A stretch of DNA of 64,000 nucleotides from an uncultured Dehalococcoidia bacterium (GTDB lineage: Bacteria > Chloroflexota > Dehalococcoidia > Lucifugimonadales > CAJWER01), in NCBI GenBank assembly GCA_964342485.1, contig CAYFFO010000004.1:29213-93212 (forward strand), read 5' to 3'. Positions 2,621 through 49,522 of the stretch are shown in pieces. The translations under genes were made by a program, and so were the position numbers. The notes under the pieces were generated by a model. It was given only the letters and a program-made list of their open reading frames with translations. It was not told the origin of the DNA and searched no databases. Each line of letters begins with the position of its first letter. The stretch's first letter is position 1.

Positions 2621-3787
2621 GTGATTGCTTATATTTTAGTTATAAACTGTGTATTGATGAAAAATATAGAATCGAAAATACGTGCATTTGGTAAAGAATT
2701 GGGCTTTAATCAGGTTAGAATTACCTCAGCCAAACCCTTCTTAAGAGACGAGGCTGCTGCAATTTCACGAGTTAAAAACGGCCTAATGGACGGCTTATCT
2801 TGGTATACAGAAGAACGAGTTCACCGATCAACTCATCCTGAACTGCTTCTGCCTGAGGCCAAATCAATTATCTCACTGGGTATTAGTTATTTTAAAGATA
2901 GTAAAAAACAAATCAATAATGTCCCAAGAGGGAAAATTGCACGATATGCGTGGGGAGATGACTATCATAAAGTCATAAAAAGAAAACTTAAGGAATTTTC
3001 GTACGGTCTTGAAAAAACAATCGCCAAGCCAATAAGAACTAGAATTTTTGTAGATGATGGTCAAATGAATGATCGTGCTGCTGCAGCACGATCAGGGCTT
3101 GGCTGGTTCGGCAAAAACACTAATATCCTTACTCAGAAGTACGGCTCATGGGTATTTCTTAGTCAAGTAATCACGGATTTAGAACTCCGATCAGATACCC
3201 CACTTAAAAAAAATTGTGGAGACTGTGTAATTTGTATAGATGATTGTCCAACAGGGGCTATAGTCGCACCATACGTTATCGACAATCGACGTTGCATTTC
3301 GTTCCTCACTATTGAGCTTCGAGGTTCTATTCCGCGTGAACTTAGACCTTTAATTGGCGACTGGGTATTTGGTTGTGATATCTGCCAGGAAGTCTGCCCA
3401 GTAAACCGTAAAATTTCTTCAAGTAAGGAACCATTATTTGAACAAAAACACGATTTTGAAGCACCATCATTAATACCGTTACTGGCGCTAGATGACATTA
3501 GCTTTCAAAAAAGATTCCATAACAGTCCTATCAAAAGAACAAAAAGAATAGGGCTACAGAGAAATGTTTGTGTTGCTCTTGGTAATATTGGAGATAAAAT
3601 GGCTTTACCAGCTTTAGAGAAAACTCTACTATCATCTGATAAAATTGTACGTGAACATGCTGCCTGGGCTATTGGAAAGATTGGTGGACCTAAGTCTATA
3701 TCAATATTGAATAATGCACTAAAACATGAGCATGAACCTCAAGTAACAAAAGAAATTCTACTTTCACTGACAGATAAACGTAGCTAA
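2621..3787 (+). CDS. queG: Epoxyqueuosine reductase
   Basis: Two ferredoxin-type Cys clusters (CGDCVICIDDCPTGA, CDICQEVCP), the GLGWFGKNTN motif and C-terminal HEAT-like repeats (ALGNIGD..., VREHAAWAIGKIGG). The likely true start is ATG 2657 (MKNIESKIRAFG...). Confidence 0.9.
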   Translation: MIAYILVINCVLMKNIESKIRAFGKELGFNQVRITSAKPFLRDEAAAISRVKNGLMDGLSWYTEERVHRSTHPELLLPEAKSIISLGISYFKDSKKQINNVPRGKIARYAWGDDYHKVIKRKLKEFSYGLEKTIAKPIRTRIFVDDGQMNDRAAAARSGLGWFGKNTNILTQKYGSWVFLSQVITDLELRSDTPLKKNCGDCVICIDDCPTGAIVAPYVIDNRRCISFLTIELRGSIPRELRPLIGDWVFGCDICQEVCPVNRKISSSKEPLFEQKHDFEAPSLIPLLALDDISFQKRFHNSPIKRTKRIGLQRNVCVALGNIGDKMALPALEKTLLSSDKIVREHAAWAIGKIGGPKSISILNNALKHEHEPQVTKEILLSLTDKRS

Positions 3788-10004: not shown

Positions 10005-11207
10005 CTATGATTTTTCTTCTTGAATATCAATCTTTGTCTTTAAAATAAGGCTTGCAGGGAGAATTACTAATGTGCTGAGTCCCATTAACATTATTGTCTT
10101 ACGTATATTGAAAATATCAGCTACTATACCAAATAAAATAGGAGCCAGGGTGCCTCCTGATTCTGTAATCGTGTAATAGTACCCGTATCCTACTGAGCGA
10201 TTCTTTGAAGTTATAAACAAAGACACCAATGAATACAGTACAGAAGAAGTTCCATTCAAACCTATCCCTAAAACAAACATCAAAGGGATAAGGAGAGCGC
10301 TAGGAACAAACAGTGTGTAAACAAGTAGTACCGCAGTGATAAACTTAGTCGCCCAAATCAAAAACATTGATCCATATCTATCATCAAGCCATCCACAAAG
10401 AAACTTGCCTAATGCTCCACCGGCTAGCAGGAAGGTCAGCATAATAAATATTTGATTATCCACTAATCCTTTGTCTTTGAGAATAAATGGTAAAAATGCT
10501 AACGCAGCAGACCGAATTCCAGAATCAATAAATCCGATAGACCCTATTGTTCCGAAAGAAGCTAAATCCGTTTTCTCTCGTTTATCTATATTTACATCCT
10601 GAAACTCGTTTCTAACATCCCCTCCTAATTTAATCCAAGGCCGAATAGTTGCCAAAACCACCATATTAACCAAACCAAAAAGTCCAACGATGCGTAGAGT
10701 CCCCCTCCATCCAAAGCGTGCAACACACAAAAGAGAAAGCAGAGGAGCGAGTAGTTTACCGATATCCCCAGCAAAATTTACAAATCCAACAGCTGTAGAC
10801 CTTCCATTTGAATCATATATTTTTGATACCAAGCTAGTTGCCAATGGATGTTGTGTGCCACCACCAAAACCAGCCACCAAAGCTAGTAATAATAGTAAGA
10901 AATACCCAGAGGTAAGGGCCATGCCTATAAGACCAATTCCAACCCATACATTCCCAAATATCAATAACCAAAACTCACCAAACTTTGTGGCAAGGTAACC
11001 TGCAGGTATCTGCAGAACAACTGAAGATGCAGCATACACAGACTTGAATAACCCAGCCTCTGTATAAGACAAAAGTAGATCAGGGTCAGATTGTATCAAA
11101 GGAAGTAAAGGCACAATTATCACAAAAAACAGATCGCTCCAAATGTGTGTCATGGAAGCAAATATAAGAGTATTACGTCGTTTTCCCGTACCACCACTTG
11201 AATTCAT
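10005..11207 (-). CDS. MFS transporter (Fsr-like subfamily, inferred)
   Basis: 400 aa with about 12 hydrophobic segments. The GGGTQHPLATSLVS and NFAGDIGKLLAPLL motifs resemble the FHPE/GGNxGxxxGP motifs of Fsr-type MFS. It is a paralog of ORF 43403-44647. Confidence 0.8.
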   Translation of the reverse strand: MNSSGGTGKRRNTLIFASMTHIWSDLFFVIIVPLLPLIQSDPDLLLSYTEAGLFKSVYAASSVVLQIPAGYLATKFGEFWLLIFGNVWVGIGLIGMALTSGYFLLLLLALVAGFGGGTQHPLATSLVSKIYDSNGRSTAVGFVNFAGDIGKLLAPLLSLLCVARFGWRGTLRIVGLFGLVNMVVLATIRPWIKLGGDVRNEFQDVNIDKREKTDLASFGTIGSIGFIDSGIRSAALAFLPFILKDKGLVDNQIFIMLTFLLAGGALGKFLCGWLDDRYGSMFLIWATKFITAVLLVYTLFVPSALLIPLMFVLGIGLNGTSSVLYSLVSLFITSKNRSVGYGYYYTITESGGTLAPILFGIVADIFNIRKTIMLMGLSTLVILPASLILKTKIDIQEEKS

Positions 11208-38265: not shown

Positions 38266-38736
38266 ATGATCCACTCTTCAAAAGACAATTTTGGCGGGTA
38301 TTTAGAAGATTTTACTCCAGGTGATATTTACAAACACTGGCCCGGTAAAACCGTAACAGAATCAGATAATCATCTGTTCTCTTTACTCACCATGAATACA
38401 AACCCTCTCCACACAGACGCAAATTATATGCAAAGTCATCAACATGGTAAGATCCTAGTCGCAGGTCCATTAGTAATCAGTATCCTAATAGGTATGAGTG
38501 TTAGAGATACTTCTGGGAAAGCAATAGCCAATCTCGAATACGAAAAAATCACACATGATAAACCAGTATTCCAAGGGGACACTATCTATGGGGAAAGTGA
38601 AATTCTTAGCGTACGTGAATCACGTACTAAAAAAGATCGAGGTATAGTTAGTATAGAAAGTAGAGCATACAATCAAAACAATGAAAAAGTGGTTACCCTA
38701 AAAAGAAGCTTCTTAGTTCCACGGAAAATGCCTTAG
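38266..38736 (+). CDS. MaoC-like (R)-specific enoyl-CoA hydratase / hot-dog fold dehydratase
   Basis: 156 aa. NPLHTD plus the GDTIYGESEIL...V hot-dog pattern is typical of MaoC-family dehydratases (mesaconyl/itaconyl-CoA hydratase-like). Confidence 0.8.
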   Translation: MIHSSKDNFGGYLEDFTPGDIYKHWPGKTVTESDNHLFSLLTMNTNPLHTDANYMQSHQHGKILVAGPLVISILIGMSVRDTSGKAIANLEYEKITHDKPVFQGDTIYGESEILSVRESRTKKDRGIVSIESRAYNQNNEKVVTLKRSFLVPRKMP

Positions 38737-41165: not shown

Positions 41166-41229
41166 TTGGTATTCTATATCTCACAAGAAAATGTTCCTGA
41201 AGATAGTACTATATCGCCACAATAAATTC

Positions 41230-41259
41230 ACATTCTTATATACTAAACTTACATTCTTA
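41230..41259 (+). repeat. Direct repeat ACATTCTTA x2 spaced exactly 21 bp (41230-41238, 41251-41259) in the divergent promoter region
   Basis: Read directly. The two-helical-turn phasing suggests a transcription-factor site upstream of the OCD-like cassette. Confidence 0.5.
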
Positions 41260-41366
41260 GTAAAATTATCTATCATAAAGAAATATCTCTTAGGCTTTTC
41301 AAATGATACAACTTATCTCGAAATATCAAAAAGAAGAATTTAACACAAATCAGAAAGAGGCGTGAA

Positions 41367-42338
41367 GTGACTTTATTTATTACTGAAAAAGACGTTGCGA
41401 GTTTATTGCCTATGGAAATAGCCATCAAAGCGCTTGAGCAAGGCTTCATAGATCAGTCAAATAAAAATGCATGGAACAGCCCGAGACGAAGAATAAACTT
41501 TGGAAATGGAACCTTCCATTTCATGGCAGCAGTAAACAAACATATCGGTGTCATGGGAATGAAGACCTATTCAACTTTCAATTCCGCTAAACCTAAATTC
41601 TATACACACCTGCTAGACTCTACAAATGGCGATTTGTTAGCTATTCTTGAAGCAAACCGGCTCGGACAAATACGCACTGGAGCTGCTAGCGGTATTGCAA
41701 CAAAATACATGTCTAACCCAGATGCTTCAACCGTCGGAATCATTGGTACAGGTTATCAAGCAGAAACACAACTTGAGGCAATTACTAAAGTAAGGAGTAT
41801 CAACAAAGTAAAAGTTTACTCTCGAAACCCTTTATTACGTAAAAACTTCTCGGTCAAAATGAGCAAAAAACTCAACTTAGATGTGGAAGATGTTACAAGC
41901 CCAGAAGAATGCATTGAAAACATGTCTATATTAGTAACTATAACCTCTGCAAAGACACCAGTACTTAAAGGCCAATGGATCACAGATAGTACTCATATTA
42001 ATGCTGCTGGAGGTAACCACTGGCTGCGTCGTGAAATCGACACAGAAACTGTTAAACTTGCCGACTTGGTAGTAACAGACGACGTAGCACAAGCTAAAAT
42101 AGAATGCGCTGATTTAATTTACCCTATTGAAAATGGAGCCCTTGATTGGCAAAGAGTCAACGAAATATGGGAAATAGTATCAGGTAGTGTACCAGCTAGA
42201 AAAAAGCAATCCGACGTAACTCTATTTGAATCGCAGGGAATAGCCTTGCAAGATATTGCTACTAGTTTTATAGTTTATTCTCTTGCGAAAACACATGGGT
42301 TTGGAAATGAATTCTCGTTTGAAGATCAAAGTGGATAG
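41367..42338 (+). CDS. Ornithine cyclodeaminase / mu-crystallin family NAD(P)-dependent enzyme
   Basis: 323 aa (GTG start). Rossmann GIIGTGYQAETQ and overall pattern match the OCD/ketimine reductase family. Substrate is unknown. Confidence 0.85.
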   Translation: MTLFITEKDVASLLPMEIAIKALEQGFIDQSNKNAWNSPRRRINFGNGTFHFMAAVNKHIGVMGMKTYSTFNSAKPKFYTHLLDSTNGDLLAILEANRLGQIRTGAASGIATKYMSNPDASTVGIIGTGYQAETQLEAITKVRSINKVKVYSRNPLLRKNFSVKMSKKLNLDVEDVTSPEECIENMSILVTITSAKTPVLKGQWITDSTHINAAGGNHWLRREIDTETVKLADLVVTDDVAQAKIECADLIYPIENGALDWQRVNEIWEIVSGSVPARKKQSDVTLFESQGIALQDIATSFIVYSLAKTHGFGNEFSFEDQSG

Positions 42339-43396
42339 TGACTATTTACCCTATAGATCAAGCACAAACAGTCCTAGGAGCAATAAACCCATCCGATCTA
42401 GGGATAACCCTGACTCATGAACATTTATTGATAGATCTGGCATTTAACAGACCAATACCAGATTCAGTATTTCTTAAAAAGATCTATTATGAACCGCTTA
42501 ACTTGGGAAATTTAGGTTATATAAAGCATTTTGGAATTGCAAATCGCGACGACTTGCAATTACTAGACATAAATACAGCAATTGATGAAATTAACCTGTA
42601 TAAAAAAGGCGGCGGCAATACAGTGGTTGATGCCACCAGCATTGGAATATCAAGAAATCCTAAATCTCTTTACAAAATATCTAAAACTACAGGTCTGCAT
42701 ATAATTATGGGATCTTCATATTACGTAGATGCTAGTCATCCTCCAGAAATGACACACACTTCTGAAAACCAAATCTATGAAACCATCATTAATGATATCG
42801 CTATGGGAGTAGAGGGCACGGGGATTAAATCTGGGTTGATTGGGGAAGTAGGATGTAGCTACCCATTAACCGATAATGAACGTAAAGTCCTACAGGCTTC
42901 TGGGAAGGCACAAAAAGATTCTGGTGCCCCTCTACTTATCCATCCTGGACGACACGAAAATTCCCCTATGGAAATTATTGAAATACTCCAGTCCACTGGT
43001 GCAAACTTAACAAAAACTATGATTTCACATATTGATCGAACTGTATTTAATAAAGATAACCTTAAAGCAATAGTTAAGGTAGGATGTTATTTAGAATGGG
43101 ATCTGTTTGGAAGCGAACAATCGCAGTATGTTTATAATCCTAAGATAGATATGCCTAGTGATGCCTCTCGCATGGATACTATAGATTGGGCAATATCTGA
43201 AGGGCTTGAAAATAAAATAGTAATTTCACAGGACATTTGCCATAAAAAACAACTTATTAAATATGGTGGACACGGTTATAACTATATATTGGGCAATATA
43301 GTTCCAAGAATGAGGAACAGAGGATTCACTGAGGATTCTATTAATAAGTTTTTGAAAAGAAATCCTGCTAAATTTCTCACATTTAGCAAAAGCTAA
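42338..43396 (+). CDS. Phosphotriesterase-family amidohydrolase (Php-like, Glu-bridged binuclear metal site)
   Basis: 352 aa. The full ligand set is visible: THEHLL (HxH), IGEVG (Glu), LLIHPGRH, ISHIDR and SQDICH (Asp). The GTG start overlaps the upstream TAG by 1 nt. Confidence 0.85.
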   Translation: MTIYPIDQAQTVLGAINPSDLGITLTHEHLLIDLAFNRPIPDSVFLKKIYYEPLNLGNLGYIKHFGIANRDDLQLLDINTAIDEINLYKKGGGNTVVDATSIGISRNPKSLYKISKTTGLHIIMGSSYYVDASHPPEMTHTSENQIYETIINDIAMGVEGTGIKSGLIGEVGCSYPLTDNERKVLQASGKAQKDSGAPLLIHPGRHENSPMEIIEILQSTGANLTKTMISHIDRTVFNKDNLKAIVKVGCYLEWDLFGSEQSQYVYNPKIDMPSDASRMDTIDWAISEGLENKIVISQDICHKKQLIKYGGHGYNYILGNIVPRMRNRGFTEDSINKFLKRNPAKFLTFSKS

Positions 43397-43402
43397 ATAG
43401 TA

Positions 43403-44647
43403 ATGGGTGGTATTAATGAAGCTGAAAATGAACTTGAGAATAGTGTGCCGATGAATTCAGATCGTAACGTTCTTGCAGCCGTAGTAGTTGTAGGACATGC
43501 GGTAAAACACATATTCAATTCAGGCATGAGGGCTTTGCTGTTACCTGAAGCAAAAATAGGATTGAATCTAACCGGAGCACAATTCGGGTCATTGTTAACA
43601 GCCAGTCAGGTTACTTCATGGGGAACCACAATTGGAGCAGGATATCTAGGAGATCGGTTTAGCAACAAAGCCGGTTTAATTTTGTTCATATCTTTATCCT
43701 TAACAGGTATCTCATTTTTTTTAGCTGGTAATTCCTACTCATATCCAATAATGTTGATATCAATGCTGTTGGTAGGGATGGGCCCGTCACTCTATCATCC
43801 TCCTGCTCTTGGAGAACTTTCAAGGCGCTTTCCCGATAAACGAGGCTTCGCTATTTCCTTACATGGAATGGGAGGAAATTTTGGAGAAGTGTTGGGCCCA
43901 TTAATTACTGCTACAGTTTTAGGTTTATTAAGCTGGCGTGGAGTTTTTCAAATCAGTTTAGCCCCGGCAATTCTATCCGGATTCATCATTTGGATTTTGT
44001 TGAGACACATCGCTTCTACACAACCTCAGTCCAATTCTACAAATGATTATTTTTTGAAAATCAGAACTCTTTTCAAAAAACCCTTAATTATTTTTATCGT
44101 GTTGATAGCAGCAACTAGAAGTGCAGGCGATACAGCGGTTGGCGGTTTCCTACCCTTATATTTGAGGGAATCTCTAGAATTATCACCAACCACAGTAGCT
44201 ATATATTTATCGCTAGCTCAGGTAGCTGGTCTTATCACTCAACCAGTATTTGGTCATATGTCAGATAAATATGGGCGTAAAATTATACTTCTTCCAGGAG
44301 TAAGCGTCGTATCGATCATATCTATAGCTCTTGCTTTTCAAACTTCCAAGATTTTCTTAATTACCCTGGTTATTTTAAAGGGTGCTTTCAGCTTTCCTCT
44401 ACACCATATGTTTATAGCCACTGCAATGGATATAGCAGGAGAAAAAGTACAGTCTACCATTGTCGCCCTTATATACGGCGCTGGATTTCTAGGAACATTT
44501 TCTCCTTATCTCGCCGGGCACCTAGTAGATAATTTTGGCATTCATAGCGCATTTATTTACGGGGGAATGGTTTCAGCTTTAGCAGCTGTTATGCTTACAA
44601 TAATAAAACTTCCAACATCAAACCGAAATTTTATCTCTCGTAAATGA
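43403..44647 (+). CDS. MFS transporter (Fsr-like subfamily, inferred)
   Basis: 414 aa with about 12 TM segments and the GMGPSLYHPPALGELS and GMGGNFGEVLGPLI motifs. It is a paralog of 10005-11207. Confidence 0.82.
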   Translation: MGGINEAENELENSVPMNSDRNVLAAVVVVGHAVKHIFNSGMRALLLPEAKIGLNLTGAQFGSLLTASQVTSWGTTIGAGYLGDRFSNKAGLILFISLSLTGISFFLAGNSYSYPIMLISMLLVGMGPSLYHPPALGELSRRFPDKRGFAISLHGMGGNFGEVLGPLITATVLGLLSWRGVFQISLAPAILSGFIIWILLRHIASTQPQSNSTNDYFLKIRTLFKKPLIIFIVLIAATRSAGDTAVGGFLPLYLRESLELSPTTVAIYLSLAQVAGLITQPVFGHMSDKYGRKIILLPGVSVVSIISIALAFQTSKIFLITLVILKGAFSFPLHHMFIATAMDIAGEKVQSTIVALIYGAGFLGTFSPYLAGHLVDNFGIHSAFIYGGMVSALAAVMLTIIKLPTSNRNFISRK

Positions 44648-45735
44648 AACATATATTTATTAAGCCCGTACAATCTCTTTGTCCTGATAGTTCAGGCTTA
44701 TCTACCATCATGTCACTTCTAAAAGACGTCGCACGTAGTTTTTACCTATCCATAAAAATTCTACCCCGTTCCATGCAATATCCTGTCGGCTTAGCTTATT
44801 TACTAGCTAGGATTGCCGACACCATCGTCGACGACCAAGTCAACAACAACAAATCAAAACTGGAAATGTTACTTGAGTTCCGGATTCAAATAAATAAAAC
44901 TGATGCTTCAAAAAACACCAAAATAATGACGGTTGACATCGAAAATAAAAACGAACCTGTAAAAAAGAAGCAATTTATAGAAAAACTACCTATTGCCTTG
45001 AAATCATTTGATGATTTAGAAGAGGACGATGCCGTCGAAGTAAGAAATCTTGTAGACACTATTGCATCAGGTATGCAATTAGAACTCTCTACATTTTTTG
45101 AATATAAAACTGATCAACCCATAGTCGCTATTCCTACAACACAAGATCAGGAGAAATATATTTACCTTGTCGCTGGCTCCGTAGGGGAATTTTGGACAAA
45201 CATGACGATACGACATACTTCCAGTTTATCAAAACATGACGCAGACCACATGAGACAGTTAGGTGTCAGCTTTGGCAAAGCTTTACAATTAACTAACATT
45301 ATCAAGGATGTGCCAGAAGATTTAAGAAGTGGACGATGTTATATACCTTCTAACGAATTATCAAGATACGATCTATCCCCAGAAGATTTATTAGATGCTA
45401 AAACCAACAAGCGAACTCAGCTTCTTCTCTACTCTAACATCGAAAGAGTGCTTAAATATTATATTGATGCACAATCTTACGTACTTGCCATCCCAAGAAG
45501 CAATATAAGATTAAGATTGGCAGCAATCTGGCCATTAACCTTTGGCCTAGCAACCCTGTCAAAGATTTCTAAAGGATCAAATTGGCTTAATCCCACCATT
45601 CCGTCCAAAATACACAGGTTATCTATATATAAAATTATCTTGATTTCATTTTTTGCCGTACAATCAAATTTCATTCTCGAATTGTGGGTATCCAGATTAA
45701 TAAAAGAAGTAACTGAAACTGTAAAATATTCTTAA
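44644..45735 (+). CDS. Squalene/phytoene synthase-family protein (head-to-head prenyl diphosphate synthase fold), atypical
   Basis: 363 aa. Both Asp-rich motifs are present (YLLARIADTIVDD; NIIKDVPEDLRSGRCYIP). It also has a Lys/Asn-rich insert after motif 1 and a hydrophobic C-terminal segment. An ATGA overlap links it to the MFS gene. Confidence 0.78.
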   Translation: MKHIFIKPVQSLCPDSSGLSTIMSLLKDVARSFYLSIKILPRSMQYPVGLAYLLARIADTIVDDQVNNNKSKLEMLLEFRIQINKTDASKNTKIMTVDIENKNEPVKKKQFIEKLPIALKSFDDLEEDDAVEVRNLVDTIASGMQLELSTFFEYKTDQPIVAIPTTQDQEKYIYLVAGSVGEFWTNMTIRHTSSLSKHDADHMRQLGVSFGKALQLTNIIKDVPEDLRSGRCYIPSNELSRYDLSPEDLLDAKTNKRTQLLLYSNIERVLKYYIDAQSYVLAIPRSNIRLRLAAIWPLTFGLATLSKISKGSNWLNPTIPSKIHRLSIYKIILISFFAVQSNFILELWVSRLIKEVTETVKYS

Positions 45736-47153: not shown

Positions 47154-49037
47154 ATGTTTGTTATTGGTACAGCAGGACATGTCGATCACGGTAAGTCCAC
47201 TTTAGTCAAAAAACTAACTGGTATAGATCCAGATCGTCTCACAGAAGAAAAAGCACGTGGAATGACAATTGATCTTGGATTTGCTTGGCTAAGCCTTCCT
47301 GGCGGTAACGAAGTAAGTATTATTGATGTCCCTGGACATGAACGCTTTGTAAATCATATGCTTGCAGGCGTCGGAATGATTGATTTAGCCCTACTAGTAA
47401 TAGCAGCTGACGAATCGGTAATGCCCCAAACTAAAGAGCATCTTTCAATTCTAAACCTTCTACAAATAAAAAGGTGTCTGGTAGCTGTGACCAAAAGTGA
47501 ACTAGTTGATGCAGATTGGTTAGATTTAGTTCAAATTGAAATCGATGAATTACTCAGCGCAACATGTCTTGAAAACTCACCTATTATTCCGATATCAAGC
47601 CAAACCGGCGACGGGATTCCACAGCTAATAAACAACATAATCAATGAATTAAAGAGAGCTAAACCACCTAATAATTTCAGCCGGCCTAGAATTGCAATAG
47701 ACCGATCGTTCACGATAGCAGGATTCGGCACTGTAGTCACCGGCACTTTAATTGAAGGTAAACTGCAAATTGGCCAAGAGGTCGAAATCCTACCTAAAGG
47801 CTATAAAAGTAGGATCAGAGGTTTGCAATCGCATAATCGAACGTTAAAACATGCGTATCCGGGCAACAGAATCGCAGTGAACTTAACAGGAGTTTCGCAC
47901 ACAGAAATAGAAAGAGGAGATGTTCTGACCATACCTGGATGGCTTCAGCCTACTTCTGCGATCGATGTCAAACTAAAAATGATAACAGAGGCACCGCGCC
48001 CAATTAAACACAATATGTTTGCAACTTTACATATTGGTACCAGAGAAACAATAACAAAAATTAGATTATTGGAAAAAGAAAAAGTATACCCTGGAGAAGA
48101 AACTTGGGCACAGTTCAAATTTGATCTGCCACAACCTTTAGTAAAGGATGATTATTTTGTAGTTCGTTCCAACAACACCACTTTAGCAGGGGGTAGAATT
48201 ATAGACCTTAACGCAAGACGACATAAGAAAAGTCATTTGCCAACTCTCGAACGACTATCAATCATGGAACATGGCTCTATTGAGGAACAATTACTGAAAA
48301 CAATAGAACTATCAGAACCGACCAATGTAAAAGATCTTGTAAACAAAACGAATTTGGAAAAGAAAGAGGTTCTTAATGAACTTAACCAAATGCGTCAGAA
48401 AAAACTGGGAGTATTTCTTGGTGATAAAGAAGTATCATCATCATCAATCATTTTCACCACCATAGGGTGGTCATCTTTAAAAATAAAAACGGAAACATTT
48501 CTGACCGACTTTCACAAAAAATTCCCATTACGTAAAGGAGCACCCAAAGAAGAACTTAGAAGTCGGCTAAATCTTAATCCAGAAATATTCGGATTAATTA
48601 TATTGAAATTGCATAGCGAATCAATCTTGGTAGAGCATCAAGGAATACTGTACGACCCAAAATACATACGTAAATTATCCCCTGTGCAGGCAAAGATTGC
48701 CAAAGAATATATCGACCTACTCTCTATTCATACTTATTCACCACCTACAGACCATGACATAGACCCAGAGCTATTGGGATTTTTAGTAGAGAAGGGAAAA
48801 GTAGTTAGAGTAACTGAACACATCATCTTTGAATCATCAGTTTACAGTGAAATGTTAGACAATATCACCAAATATCTCGATATTCATAATGAAATCTCTG
48901 TTGCAACGGTAAGAGACATGTTTGGAACCAGTCGCAAATATGCTTTAGCTATAATGGACTATCTTGACCAAATGAATATTACCCGTAGAATTGGTGATAT
49001 AAGAATACTTCAACCAAGTAAGTTGCAGAAGTTATGA
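47154..49037 (+). CDS. selB: Selenocysteine-specific translation elongation factor
   Basis: 627 aa. G domain [13 protein letters not shown] and [10 protein letters not shown]-Tu-like domains II-III, and about 280 aa of C-terminal winged-helix repeats typical of SelB. The G4 motif reads TKSE rather than the canonical TKxD. Confidence 0.88.
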
Positions 49038-49522
49038 TACAAAAAAACCAGAATCATATTCTTGAATTAATACTAGACCAGGGCCATGTGCCAGTTTCAT
49101 ATATCTCATCATTGCTTCGTACTTTACAGGCAGCAATACGTGAAGTGGCAGTCAGTTCAGAAAATACTCGATCTTATTTTGATAAACAACCACAACCAAC
49201 ACTGGTTTTAATTTCAATCGTTTCAGGTGAACAAATCAGTATGTGTCTAGGATTCGAAGACCCAATCAATAAAAAAATTCTTCCAACCTTATCAGAAAAT
49301 ACGTTCAGTACTTTCCTAGATAAGCTCAGTGAATTTGTAATGAGCTTACCCCAACCAAGTTTATGGGGAGGTGCTGCTCGAAAATCATCAACCAATCCCG
49401 AAACAGAAATGTCCAACCGGATGGACCAAGTATACGCTGAACTTAGAAGAGCTAAAAAGGTGAATCTGAAATTTAAGACCCGATCGATTGAAATTGAGGG
49501 CGATCGATTTGAAATTTTTTGA
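49034..49522 (+). CDS. Hypothetical protein (162 aa), translationally coupled to selB
   Basis: The ATG overlaps the selB TGA (ATGA at 49034-49037). No recognisable motif. Confidence 0.6.
   Translation: MIQKNQNHILELILDQGHVPVSYISSLLRTLQAAIREVAVSSENTRSYFDKQPQPTLVLISIVSGEQISMCLGFEDPINKKILPTLSENTFSTFLDKLSEFVMSLPQPSLWGGAARKSSTNPETEMSNRMDQVYAELRRAKKVNLKFKTRSIEIEGDRFEIF

Follow-up and report, generated by a model that had tools for sequence, protein, structure and literature searches.

Results

Layout of the four-gene block

We analyzed a 64,000-nt stretch of DNA (hereafter, the window) from an uncultured Dehalococcoidia bacterium (assembly GCA_964342485.1, contig CAYFFO010000004.1, positions 29,213 to 93,212). 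It carries a block of four co-directional open reading frames (ORFs) that encode an enzyme of the OCD/mu-crystallin family, a metal-dependent hydrolase that appears to be a bacterial relative of the phosphotriesterase-related protein (PTER) of animals, a permease of the MFS family and a squalene synthase (SQS)-like protein (Table 1). The block and its junctions of -1, +6 and -4 nt had been read from the letters alone in an earlier annotation (the original prediction), and every coordinate given there is correct. All four family assignments made at that time (OCD/mu-crystallin, PTE, MFS and SQS_PSY) also hold in profile searches, with E-values of 3.7e-62 for OCD_Mu_crystall, 1.1e-81 for PTE, 2.5e-46 for MFS_1 and 3e-48 for SQS_PSY.

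Table 1. Genes of the block and features of the region upstream of it
Feature	Position	Strand	Length	Description	Family match
Divergent intergenic region	41166-41366	.	201 bp	separates ORF1 from a Zincin_1 gene on the minus strand; presumably holds the promoter of the block	
Repeat ACATTCTTA, two copies	41230-41238 and 41251-41259	+		21 bp from start to start	
ORF1	41367-42338	+	323 aa	OCD/mu-crystallin family, NAD(P)-dependent amino-acid dehydrogenase or imine reductase	PF02423, 210.6 bits
ORF2	42338-43396	+	352 aa	predicted PTER-type binuclear-metal amidohydrolase, phosphotriesterase family, bridging Glu	PF02126, 275 bits
ORF3	43403-44647	+	414 aa	MFS permease, distantly Fsr-like, presumed substrate transporter of the module	PF07690, 158.7 bits
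ORF4	44644-45735	+	363 aa	predicted squalene-synthase-type (FDFT1-like) head-to-head prenyl-diphosphate synthase	PF00494, 165.3 bits

The stop codon TAG of ORF1 and the start codon GTG of ORF2 have base 42338 in common. Six bases (43397-43402) separate the TAA of ORF2 from the ATG of ORF3, and ORF3 and ORF4 overlap through ATGA at 44644-44647. The GTG of ORF2 is the sole canonical start in frame between the upstream stop and the conserved N-terminus. ORF3 could alternatively start at Met17, and in some strains it is called as a 398-aa protein. For ORF4 the alternative start is Met23; the overlapping start is favored because the 22-codon extension is still open in the sister species, where it carries an in-frame indel. 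The corresponding junctions in the sister species (loci L105 and L005) are -4, 20 and 17 nt.

The 39 co-directional gene pairs in the window are separated by a median of 75 nt, and three of the eight gaps that do not exceed 10 nt are the junctions of the block. The block is thus the tightest run within the window, though tight junctions are not unique to it. The four genes are very probably co-transcribed. Inside the block there is no excess of promoter-like or terminator-like sites, and these scans are uninformative there (14 promoter-like sites versus 17.9 expected, and 4 terminator-like sites versus 2.8).

The window has a GC content of ~38%, and identical loci are present on contigs from Tara Oceans and other marine metagenomes. 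The nearest relatives of all four proteins are in metagenome-assembled genomes (MAGs) labeled Dehalococcoidia, Chloroflexota or SAR202. The block is vertically inherited, in a marine low-GC Dehalococcoidia (SAR202-like) bacterium.

ORF2 as a probable PTER-type amidohydrolase

ORF2 matches PF02126 over the full length of the profile (residues 16-348 versus positions 1-298 of 298). Its best match in the PDB is 9efa, a 356-aa phosphotriesterase-related protein, with an E-value of 2.7e-88, 300 bits and 41.5% identity over 340 aa. Other members of the family score far lower, namely 166 bits for 3k2g (Rsp3690), 128 bits for 3rhg (Pmi1525) and for E. coli Php (YhfV; 1bf6/4lef), and at most 102 bits for the OPH/PLL enzymes. 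By these scores, ORF2 is nearer to PTER than to any other characterized subgroup of the PTE family. The label "Php-type" in the original prediction is therefore not the best one, and ORF2 also misses the cut-off of the Php equivalog PRK09875 of NCBIfam (141.4 bits, cut-off 486). Php, Rsp3690 and Pmi1525 do share with ORF2 the family, the fold and a bridging Glu in place of the carbamylated Lys. Php, however, aligns only from about residue 65 of ORF2 and so lacks the N-terminal segment.

The metal ligands of ORF2 are H27, H29, E170, H202, H231 and D299, and they are invariant in 40 homologues. All ligands of the binuclear metal site are therefore present as first proposed, the bridging residue being Glu and not carbamylated Lys. 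These residues correspond to H26, H28 and E169 of mouse PTER and to H206, H235 and D303 of the sponge enzyme. In sponge PTER, His206, Arg209, Arg238 and Tyr268 hold the sulfonate of taurine (PMC12873775). Their counterparts in ORF2 are H202, R205, R234 and Y264, all of them invariant in the 40 bacterial homologues. R204 and R233 of mouse PTER occupy the same positions as R205 and R234. At other pocket and channel positions the picture is mixed: Y129 matches sponge Tyr131, but sponge Phe34 and Phe270 are L34 and Y266 in ORF2, and mouse His300 is C301. This mapping was made via a HMMER alignment, with a two-residue numbering offset allowed for. ORF2 and the animal PTERs (sponge 9efa/9efb; mouse) also share the PF02126 TIM-barrel fold, a similar length (~350 aa) and the general-base Asp. 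ORF2 differs from them in being bacterial, in having several paralogues per Dehalococcoidia genome and in lying next to permease and dehydrogenase genes in an operon-like block. On these grounds we consider ORF2 a bacterial PTER-type amidohydrolase.

PTER was de-orphanized in 2024 as an N-acetyltaurine hydrolase (PMC11374699). It also cleaves N-acetyl-beta-alanine, but not N-acetyl-alpha-alanine or N-acetyl-GABA (PMC13311154), and beyond its two main substrates it accepts just a few small N-acetyl compounds (PMC11374699, PMC13311154). Since the substrates of PTER are now known, an amide is a likelier substrate for ORF2 than a lactone or a cyclic compound. The best guess would be a small N-acetylated amine with an anionic head group.

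A scan of GTDB species representatives with the PTER alignment gave at least 599 stretches, at least 584 of them confirmed, and the best 80 loci were inspected. Nearly all of these 80 are in Dehalococcoidia MAGs, and some genomes have two or three loci. PTER-type genes are hugely expanded in Dehalococcoidia/SAR202 (L009-L088 among the matches listed), with up to three loci from one genome (L035, L053 and L065 from CATOSD01) and tandem duplicates in L014 and L060. Among the matches listed, the neighbors of the paralogues include FAD-dependent DAO-type amine oxidases in eight loci and, elsewhere, SDR, NHL-repeat, DUF1800, luciferase-like monooxygenase and PadR/HAAS/DegV genes. A literature search on SAR202 with phosphotriesterase or squalene found nothing relevant.

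ORF1 and ORF3

ORF1 matches PF02423 over its full length (residues 3-308 versus positions 4-311 of 314) and contains the Rossmann motif GxGxxA. Its best matches among solved structures are 6t3e, a Delta1-pyrroline-2-carboxylate (Pyr2C) reductase (7e-54), and 1omo, the archaeal alanine dehydrogenase (AlaDH; 8e-42); the iminosuccinate reductase BhcD (6rqa) belongs to the same family. ORF1 falls below every equivalog cut-off of NCBIfam. The best score is to PRK08618 (213.6 bits, cut-off 417), followed by archaeal AlaDH (194.5/409), BhcD (164.6/500), Pyr2C/Pip2C reductase (147.5/322), EutC (134.3/472) and OCD (113.1/350). These scores point to no particular substrate. A literature search on 6t3e gave nothing useful for placing this nearest OCD relative.

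ORF3 had been described as Fsr-like, and the basis for this is modest: 25% identity over 277 aa and 54 bits to E. coli Fsr, together with the common motifs LVG.G.S..HP and GGNFG..LGPL. Several generic MFS subfamily models match ORF3 as strongly as Fsr does. ORF3 is an MFS permease without a close characterized relative, and a profile of it gave only weak matches to solved structures (QacA, OxlT, Spns2). A metagenome scan with the MFS alignment found just five true orthologues, every one on a short contig.

ORF4 as a member of a large squalene-synthase-like clade

The original prediction noted that ORF4 keeps both Asp-rich motifs of head-to-head synthases, and D59xxxD63 and D222xxxD226 are indeed invariant in 43-46 homologues. 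It also described the protein as atypical and possibly repurposed, with a Lys/Asn-rich insert and a hydrophobic C-terminus, and here the comparison gives a different picture. The alignment of ORF4 with its homologues is colinear and all clade-invariant residues are kept. The Lys/Asn-rich stretch (about residues 65-115) is present in all 43-46 homologues and is not an insert; its Lys and Asn content reflects the 38% GC of the genome. C-terminal hydrophobic helices are likewise found in all of these homologues. In the AlphaFold model of ORF4 (predicted local distance difference test, 88.2; predicted template modeling score, 0.88), the Lys/Asn-rich stretch is a lower-confidence loop and the C-terminus consists of two conserved helices.

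In a Foldseek search of the PDB with this model, the top 41 matches are all squalene synthases, with template modeling (TM) scores up to 0.76/0.82. CrtM ranks behind them with a TM score of ~0.60. The best matches of the clade profile are eukaryote-type squalene synthases, which it covers over their full length (7wgh, 94.7 bits; human SQS, ~83 bits over positions 12-353), whereas PSY and CrtM give local matches only. ORF4 thus resembles the eukaryote-type enzymes (FDFT1/ERG9, K00801, including bacterial SQS) in both profile and fold, and it contains the segment between helices B and C that is missing from CrtM and PSY. Its flap motif RSF and its residues Y52, R56, Y172 and Q215/N218 align with the human counterparts, which we take to be R52-S53-F54, Y73, R77, Y171 and Q212/N215. 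The Tara annotation of ORF4 is K00801, and several relatives are named farnesyl-diphosphate farnesyltransferase by JGI.

The resemblance has its limits. ORF4 is just ~20% identical to solved SQS structures, and it scores 94 bits on the squalene-synthase equivalog (TIGR01559), the cut-off of which is 286.75. Six clade relatives from Dehalococcoidia and Planctomycetota, scored together with ORF4, reach 79-91 bits on that model, and the whole set reaches 76-104 bits on the HpnD equivalog (cut-off 278.6). The nearest homologues outside the species are just 40-45% identical but very numerous, and relatives are found in unrelated contexts in L007 and L097-L099. The possibility that ORF4 falls into an ordinary clade normally found elsewhere, which the original prediction named as a point against itself, is therefore largely what is seen. 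The clade appears to be a separate, uncurated subfamily outside all curated equivalog models, and ORF4 an ordinary, catalytically intact-looking member of it, neither atypical nor decaying according to alignment and model.

Of the four genes, the SQS-like one evolves fastest in every comparison, though in proportion to its neighbors. Its identity to the L010 protein is 40% (56-65% for the other three) and to the sister species 77% (87-91% for the others). A 410-aa gene that overlaps the SQS start in the Planctomycetota locus L099 was considered as a divergent MFS gene, and no similarity was found.

Conservation of the gene order

Gene orders in other genomes were obtained from tblastn searches with the window proteins and Pfam scans of the adjoining genes (Table 2).

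Table 2. Gene orders at loci related to the block
Locus	Gene order
L105, L005 (sister species, 38% GC)	Rpe - Zincin / OCD - PTER - MFS - SQS - HemW - SelB
L010, L011 (60-65% GC)	SSF - ThiD - OCD - PTER - MFS - SQS - YchF - ABC
L012, L013	as L010 and L011, but PTER and MFS are separated by an inserted AAA_21 ATPase and 170-aa ORF
L009	ThiD - OCD - PTER - QueG
L014	ThiD - OCD - PTER - PTER - x - MFS, without SQS
L015	ThiD - OCD - PTER - x - MFS, then contig end
L006	AAA - MFS - SQS
L090-L092	45-aa PTER relic upstream of MFS, without SQS

The order OCD-PTER-MFS-SQS is present in the sister species and in high-GC Dehalococcoidia MAGs, the proteins of which are 40-65% identical to those of the window. 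The original prediction had counted a lack of synteny in related genomes as evidence against it. Instead, the order recurs in L105 and in the distant L010-L013, where the flanks are different: L009-L015 lack the rpe, Zincin, hemW, selB and argH genes of the window, and the window in turn has neither ThiD nor YchF. The adjacency is conserved and therefore not accidental.

The individual pairs are conserved to different degrees. OCD and PTER adjoin in the window lineage and in L009-L015; in L009-L015 and L105 the PTER gene directly follows the ORF1 orthologue. PTER and MFS adjoin in the window lineage, L010 and L011, and with an inserted gene between them in L012-L015. ORF3 orthologues (61-67% identical) lie 3' of PTER in L010-L015 and 5' of SQS in L006 and L010-L013. 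The set OCD-PTER-MFS recurs in three lineages, and the SQS adjacency is limited to two. Among the 73 more distant PTER paralogue loci in the best matches listed, none has an OCD or MFS gene near PTER, and a single one, L041, has an SQS gene 2.3 kb from the paralogue.

The ThiD (phosphomethylpyrimidine kinase) gene lies 14-15 nt 5' of the OCD gene in eight loci (L009-L015 and L103; e.g. L012:8200-9966). This adjacency is at least as conserved as that of OCD and PTER. L103 keeps ThiD-OCD although it has no PTER, and in L102 the OCD gene is followed 1.3 kb on by a 49%-identical MFS gene; a degraded PTER gene between these two was looked for in L102 and not detected even at E<=5.

Several loci bear traces of rearrangement. 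PTER-like fragments (residues ~64-111, 57-62% identical) are present at L090:265-411, L091:310-456 and L092:395-520, ~700 nt upstream of an intact MFS orthologue, and resemble relics of a lost PTER gene. The inserted AAA_21/AAA_15 ATPase gene and the 170-aa ORF, which has no Pfam match, are at L012:11121-12712 and L013:11121-12712. The two genes may be an insert of a mobile or defence type. At L006:5937-6512, MFS-SQS is preceded by an AAA fragment with 64% identity, and at L097:4005-5063 there is an AAA_15 gene two genes ahead of SQS. In L013 the MFS orthologue is in two overlapping pieces in different frames (L013:12831-13956), either a frameshifted pseudogene or an assembly error. A QueG (epoxyqueuosine reductase) gene is directly 3' of PTER in L009 (L009:11178-12305); the window has a 67%-identical homologue at 2657-3775, ~38 kb from the block.

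Upstream region and other genes of the window

The 201-bp intergenic region upstream of ORF1 contains ACATTCTTA twice, 21 bp apart, in agreement with the earlier description. The window holds four exact copies of this sequence versus 1.23 expected, and 6 of 100 shuffled sequences reach four. In the sister species (L105) the first copy is identical and the second is ACATCCTTT. The repeat is real, its significance is weak and its conservation only partial, and a role as an operator or promoter element is putative. The upstream core GATAGTACTATATC ... TCACATTCTTATATA.TAAACTTACAT is kept in L105. Two weak sigma-70-like matches lie at 41227-41255 and 41248-41276, and the promoter scan shows no excess of promoter-like sites (14 versus 17.9 in shuffled sequence). 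A search for a riboswitch or leader upstream of ORF1 found none, the Rfam matches in the window being tRNAs only.

Elsewhere in the window, the large ORFs encode FtsH, IlvD and a TPR protein. A class-III aminotransferase gene sits with argG and argH, and a MaoC/mesaconyl-CoA-hydratase-like ORF (38266-38736, 156 aa) begins 7 nt after argG, which gives the run class-III aminotransferase, argG, MaoC, argH. The gene for the selenocysteine-specific elongation factor SelB overlaps a 162-aa ORF (49034-49522, no Pfam match) by ATGA, the two spanning 47154-49522; a NurA nuclease gene comes next, and the selB arrangement is kept in L005 and L105. A second MFS_1 gene (10005-11207, minus strand) adjoins FAD synthetase and DAHP synthase genes.

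Discussion

Our data suggest that the block is a co-transcribed unit in which three proteins, the MFS permease, the PTER-type deacetylase and the OCD-family dehydrogenase, make up a small catabolic module for N-acetyltaurine, N-acetyl-beta-alanine or a similar compound, with the SQS gene as a syntenic passenger. We give this reading about an even chance of being right. ORF3, of which we infer both the substrate and the direction of transport, would take up a small anionic N-acyl amine, with N-acetyltaurine, N-acetyl-beta-alanine and close analogues as candidates. ORF2 would split it into acetate and the free amine. ORF1 may then process the amine or a derived imine, either by oxidative deamination, as in the archaeal-type AlaDH, or by imine reduction, and the outcome would be ammonium and a carbon skeleton. 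ORF4 would most likely condense two farnesyl diphosphates into squalene for membrane lipids. Its place at the 3' end of the transcript would be due to conserved synteny and genome compaction and not to common chemistry.

That the block outlasted a large shift in base composition and the loss of both flanks speaks for selection acting on all of it, or on OCD-PTER-MFS at the least. PTER paralogues next to FAD-dependent DAO-type oxidases follow the same logic, in that a deacylase is paired with an amine-oxidizing enzyme. A precedent is the Naa system of Cupriavidus necator H16 and Ruegeria pomeroyi, which comprises the amidohydrolase NaaS, the metallochaperone NaaT, the regulator NaaR and the ABC transporter NaaABB'CC' (encoded by naaS, naaT, naaR and naaABB'CC'; PMC4334477). 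Through this system marine bacteria use N-acetyltaurine, a phytoplankton-derived substrate (PMC4334477), and therefore the ecology of the proposed module is plausible. The proposed logic is the same: a metal-dependent amidohydrolase frees acetate and taurine and is served by a dedicated transporter. The Naa system differs from the block in its ABC instead of MFS transporter, in its LysR regulator and metallochaperone, both absent from the block, and in having neither an OCD enzyme nor an SQS. The original prediction had proposed an uptake and catabolic module of all four genes for a cyclic N-containing or lactone compound. A module of that kind is still the best account of ORF1 to ORF3, but an amide is likelier than a cyclic or lactone substrate, and a part in it for the SQS-like protein is unlikely.

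Several observations weigh against the catabolic module. In L006 the MFS and SQS genes stay adjacent without PTER or OCD, and the permease could therefore belong with SQS instead. In the pocket and channel of ORF2, Phe34 and Phe270 of the sponge enzyme are replaced by L34 and Y266, and His300 of the mouse enzyme by C301, so that the substrate could differ from that of animal PTER. The many PTER-family paralogues per genome imply several different substrates for the family. OCD relatives that are 47-52% identical occur without PTER in L100-L103, and ThiD-OCD is conserved as well as OCD-PTER; ORF1 may therefore be a housekeeping dehydrogenase. In addition, no genes of a taurine or beta-alanine pathway (an Xsc-like thiamine-diphosphate enzyme, Tpa) were seen among the window ORFs examined in a partial Pfam scan.

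The strongest alternative is pure synteny with no common function, which we regard as possible, though less probable than the module. A housekeeping AlaDH-like OCD enzyme, one of many PTER paralogues, a transporter and a lipid enzyme would then be four independent genes that remain from an ancestral SSF-ThiD-OCD-PTER-MFS-SQS-YchF-ABC neighborhood, and their packing would result from genome streamlining in a low-GC lineage. The conserved run in L010-L013 does extend to the unrelated ThiD, YchF and ABC-2 transporter genes, and the ThiD-OCD gaps are just 14-15 nt. The genes are also found apart, as OCD in L100-L103, SQS in L007 and L097-L099, MFS-SQS in L006 and OCD-PTER in L009, and five other junctions in the window are 10 nt or shorter. 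However, the window lineage has lost every ancestral flank and yet keeps these four genes in order, across a change in GC from ~63% to 38% and at 40-65% protein identity. OCD-PTER-MFS is found in three separate lineages, and the three junctions form the tightest run of the window. Conserved order alone is nevertheless no proof of a four-enzyme pathway, as ThiD and YchF are conserved neighbors in the same MAGs.

Such a pathway was the view of the original prediction, in which all four proteins act in one undescribed route and a repurposed or moonlighting SQS-fold protein is coupled to the transporter. We consider it unlikely. In its favor, the order is kept in two divergent lineages (A, the window, L005 and L105; B, L010-L013), MFS-SQS adjacency extends to L006, the ORF3 stop and ORF4 start overlap in the window, a PTER paralogue lies close to SQS in L041, and the SQS clade scores ~80-100 bits where the equivalog cut-offs are ~280. 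Against this, ORF4 has intact clade-invariant residues and Asp-rich motifs and no insert, it matches genuine squalene synthases in fold and profile over its full length, and most members of its clade are in unrelated contexts. Even the sister species has a 17-nt gap in place of the ATGA overlap, and no SQS gene is found downstream of MFS in L014 and L090-L092. Nor is there a chemical logic that would tie an amidase or an imine reductase to the condensation of prenyl diphosphates.

The known substrates of PTER, which are N-acetylated amines with a two-carbon spacer and an anionic head group, are close analogues of N-acyl aminoalkyl-phosphonates. The block could thus be a detoxification or resistance module for fosmidomycin/FR-900098-like inhibitors of the methylerythritol phosphate (MEP) pathway or for N-acetyl-2-aminoethylphosphonate, in which the compound is moved out or in by the Fsr-like MFS protein and deacylated by the PTER-type amidase; co-expression with the adjoining isoprenoid-pathway gene would then be meaningful. 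This is very improbable, since the likeness of ORF3 to the fosmidomycin efflux pump Fsr (25% identity, 54 bits, common motifs) is weak and on a par with generic MFS matches, genes of phosphonate metabolism were not seen nearby among the window ORFs examined in the partial Pfam scan, and chemical analogy is the sole basis.

Returning to the catabolic module, a bolder form of it would take the whole block as a true functional unit. In that form, a small N-acyl aminoalkyl sulfonate, carboxylate or phosphonate (for instance N-acetyltaurine, N-acetyl-beta-alanine or an N-acyl aminoalkyl-phosphonate) would be handled by the Fsr-like MFS and the PTER orthologue in marine SAR202-type Dehalococcoidia. 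The OCD enzyme would deaminate the freed amine directly, by a new NAD-dependent route, and expression would be deliberately tied to SQS. More broadly, the very large PTER expansion in SAR202 would be a hitherto unrecognized toolkit that removes acyl groups from the N-acyl compounds of marine dissolved organic matter. This form seems unlikely.

The most useful lead is the PTER orthology, together with the wide expansion of PTER genes in Dehalococcoidia, and the interest of the block does not lie in its SQS gene. What the SQS-like protein does bring to attention is a large clade in Dehalococcoidia and Planctomycetota that appears to fall outside all curated equivalog models. The block also advises caution, since in a compact genome conserved order and stop/start overlaps do not alone define a pathway.

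A probable PTER orthologue with conserved sulfonate-binding residues lies beside a permease and a dehydrogenase in a conserved block of an abundant, uncultured marine lineage, and hundreds of Dehalococcoidia species have PTER-related genes, often several per genome. This suggests a role for the bacterial "orphans" of the PTE family and provides a hypothesis for the diet of SAR202-type bacteria, which may include phytoplankton metabolites like N-acetyltaurine or N-acetyl-beta-alanine.

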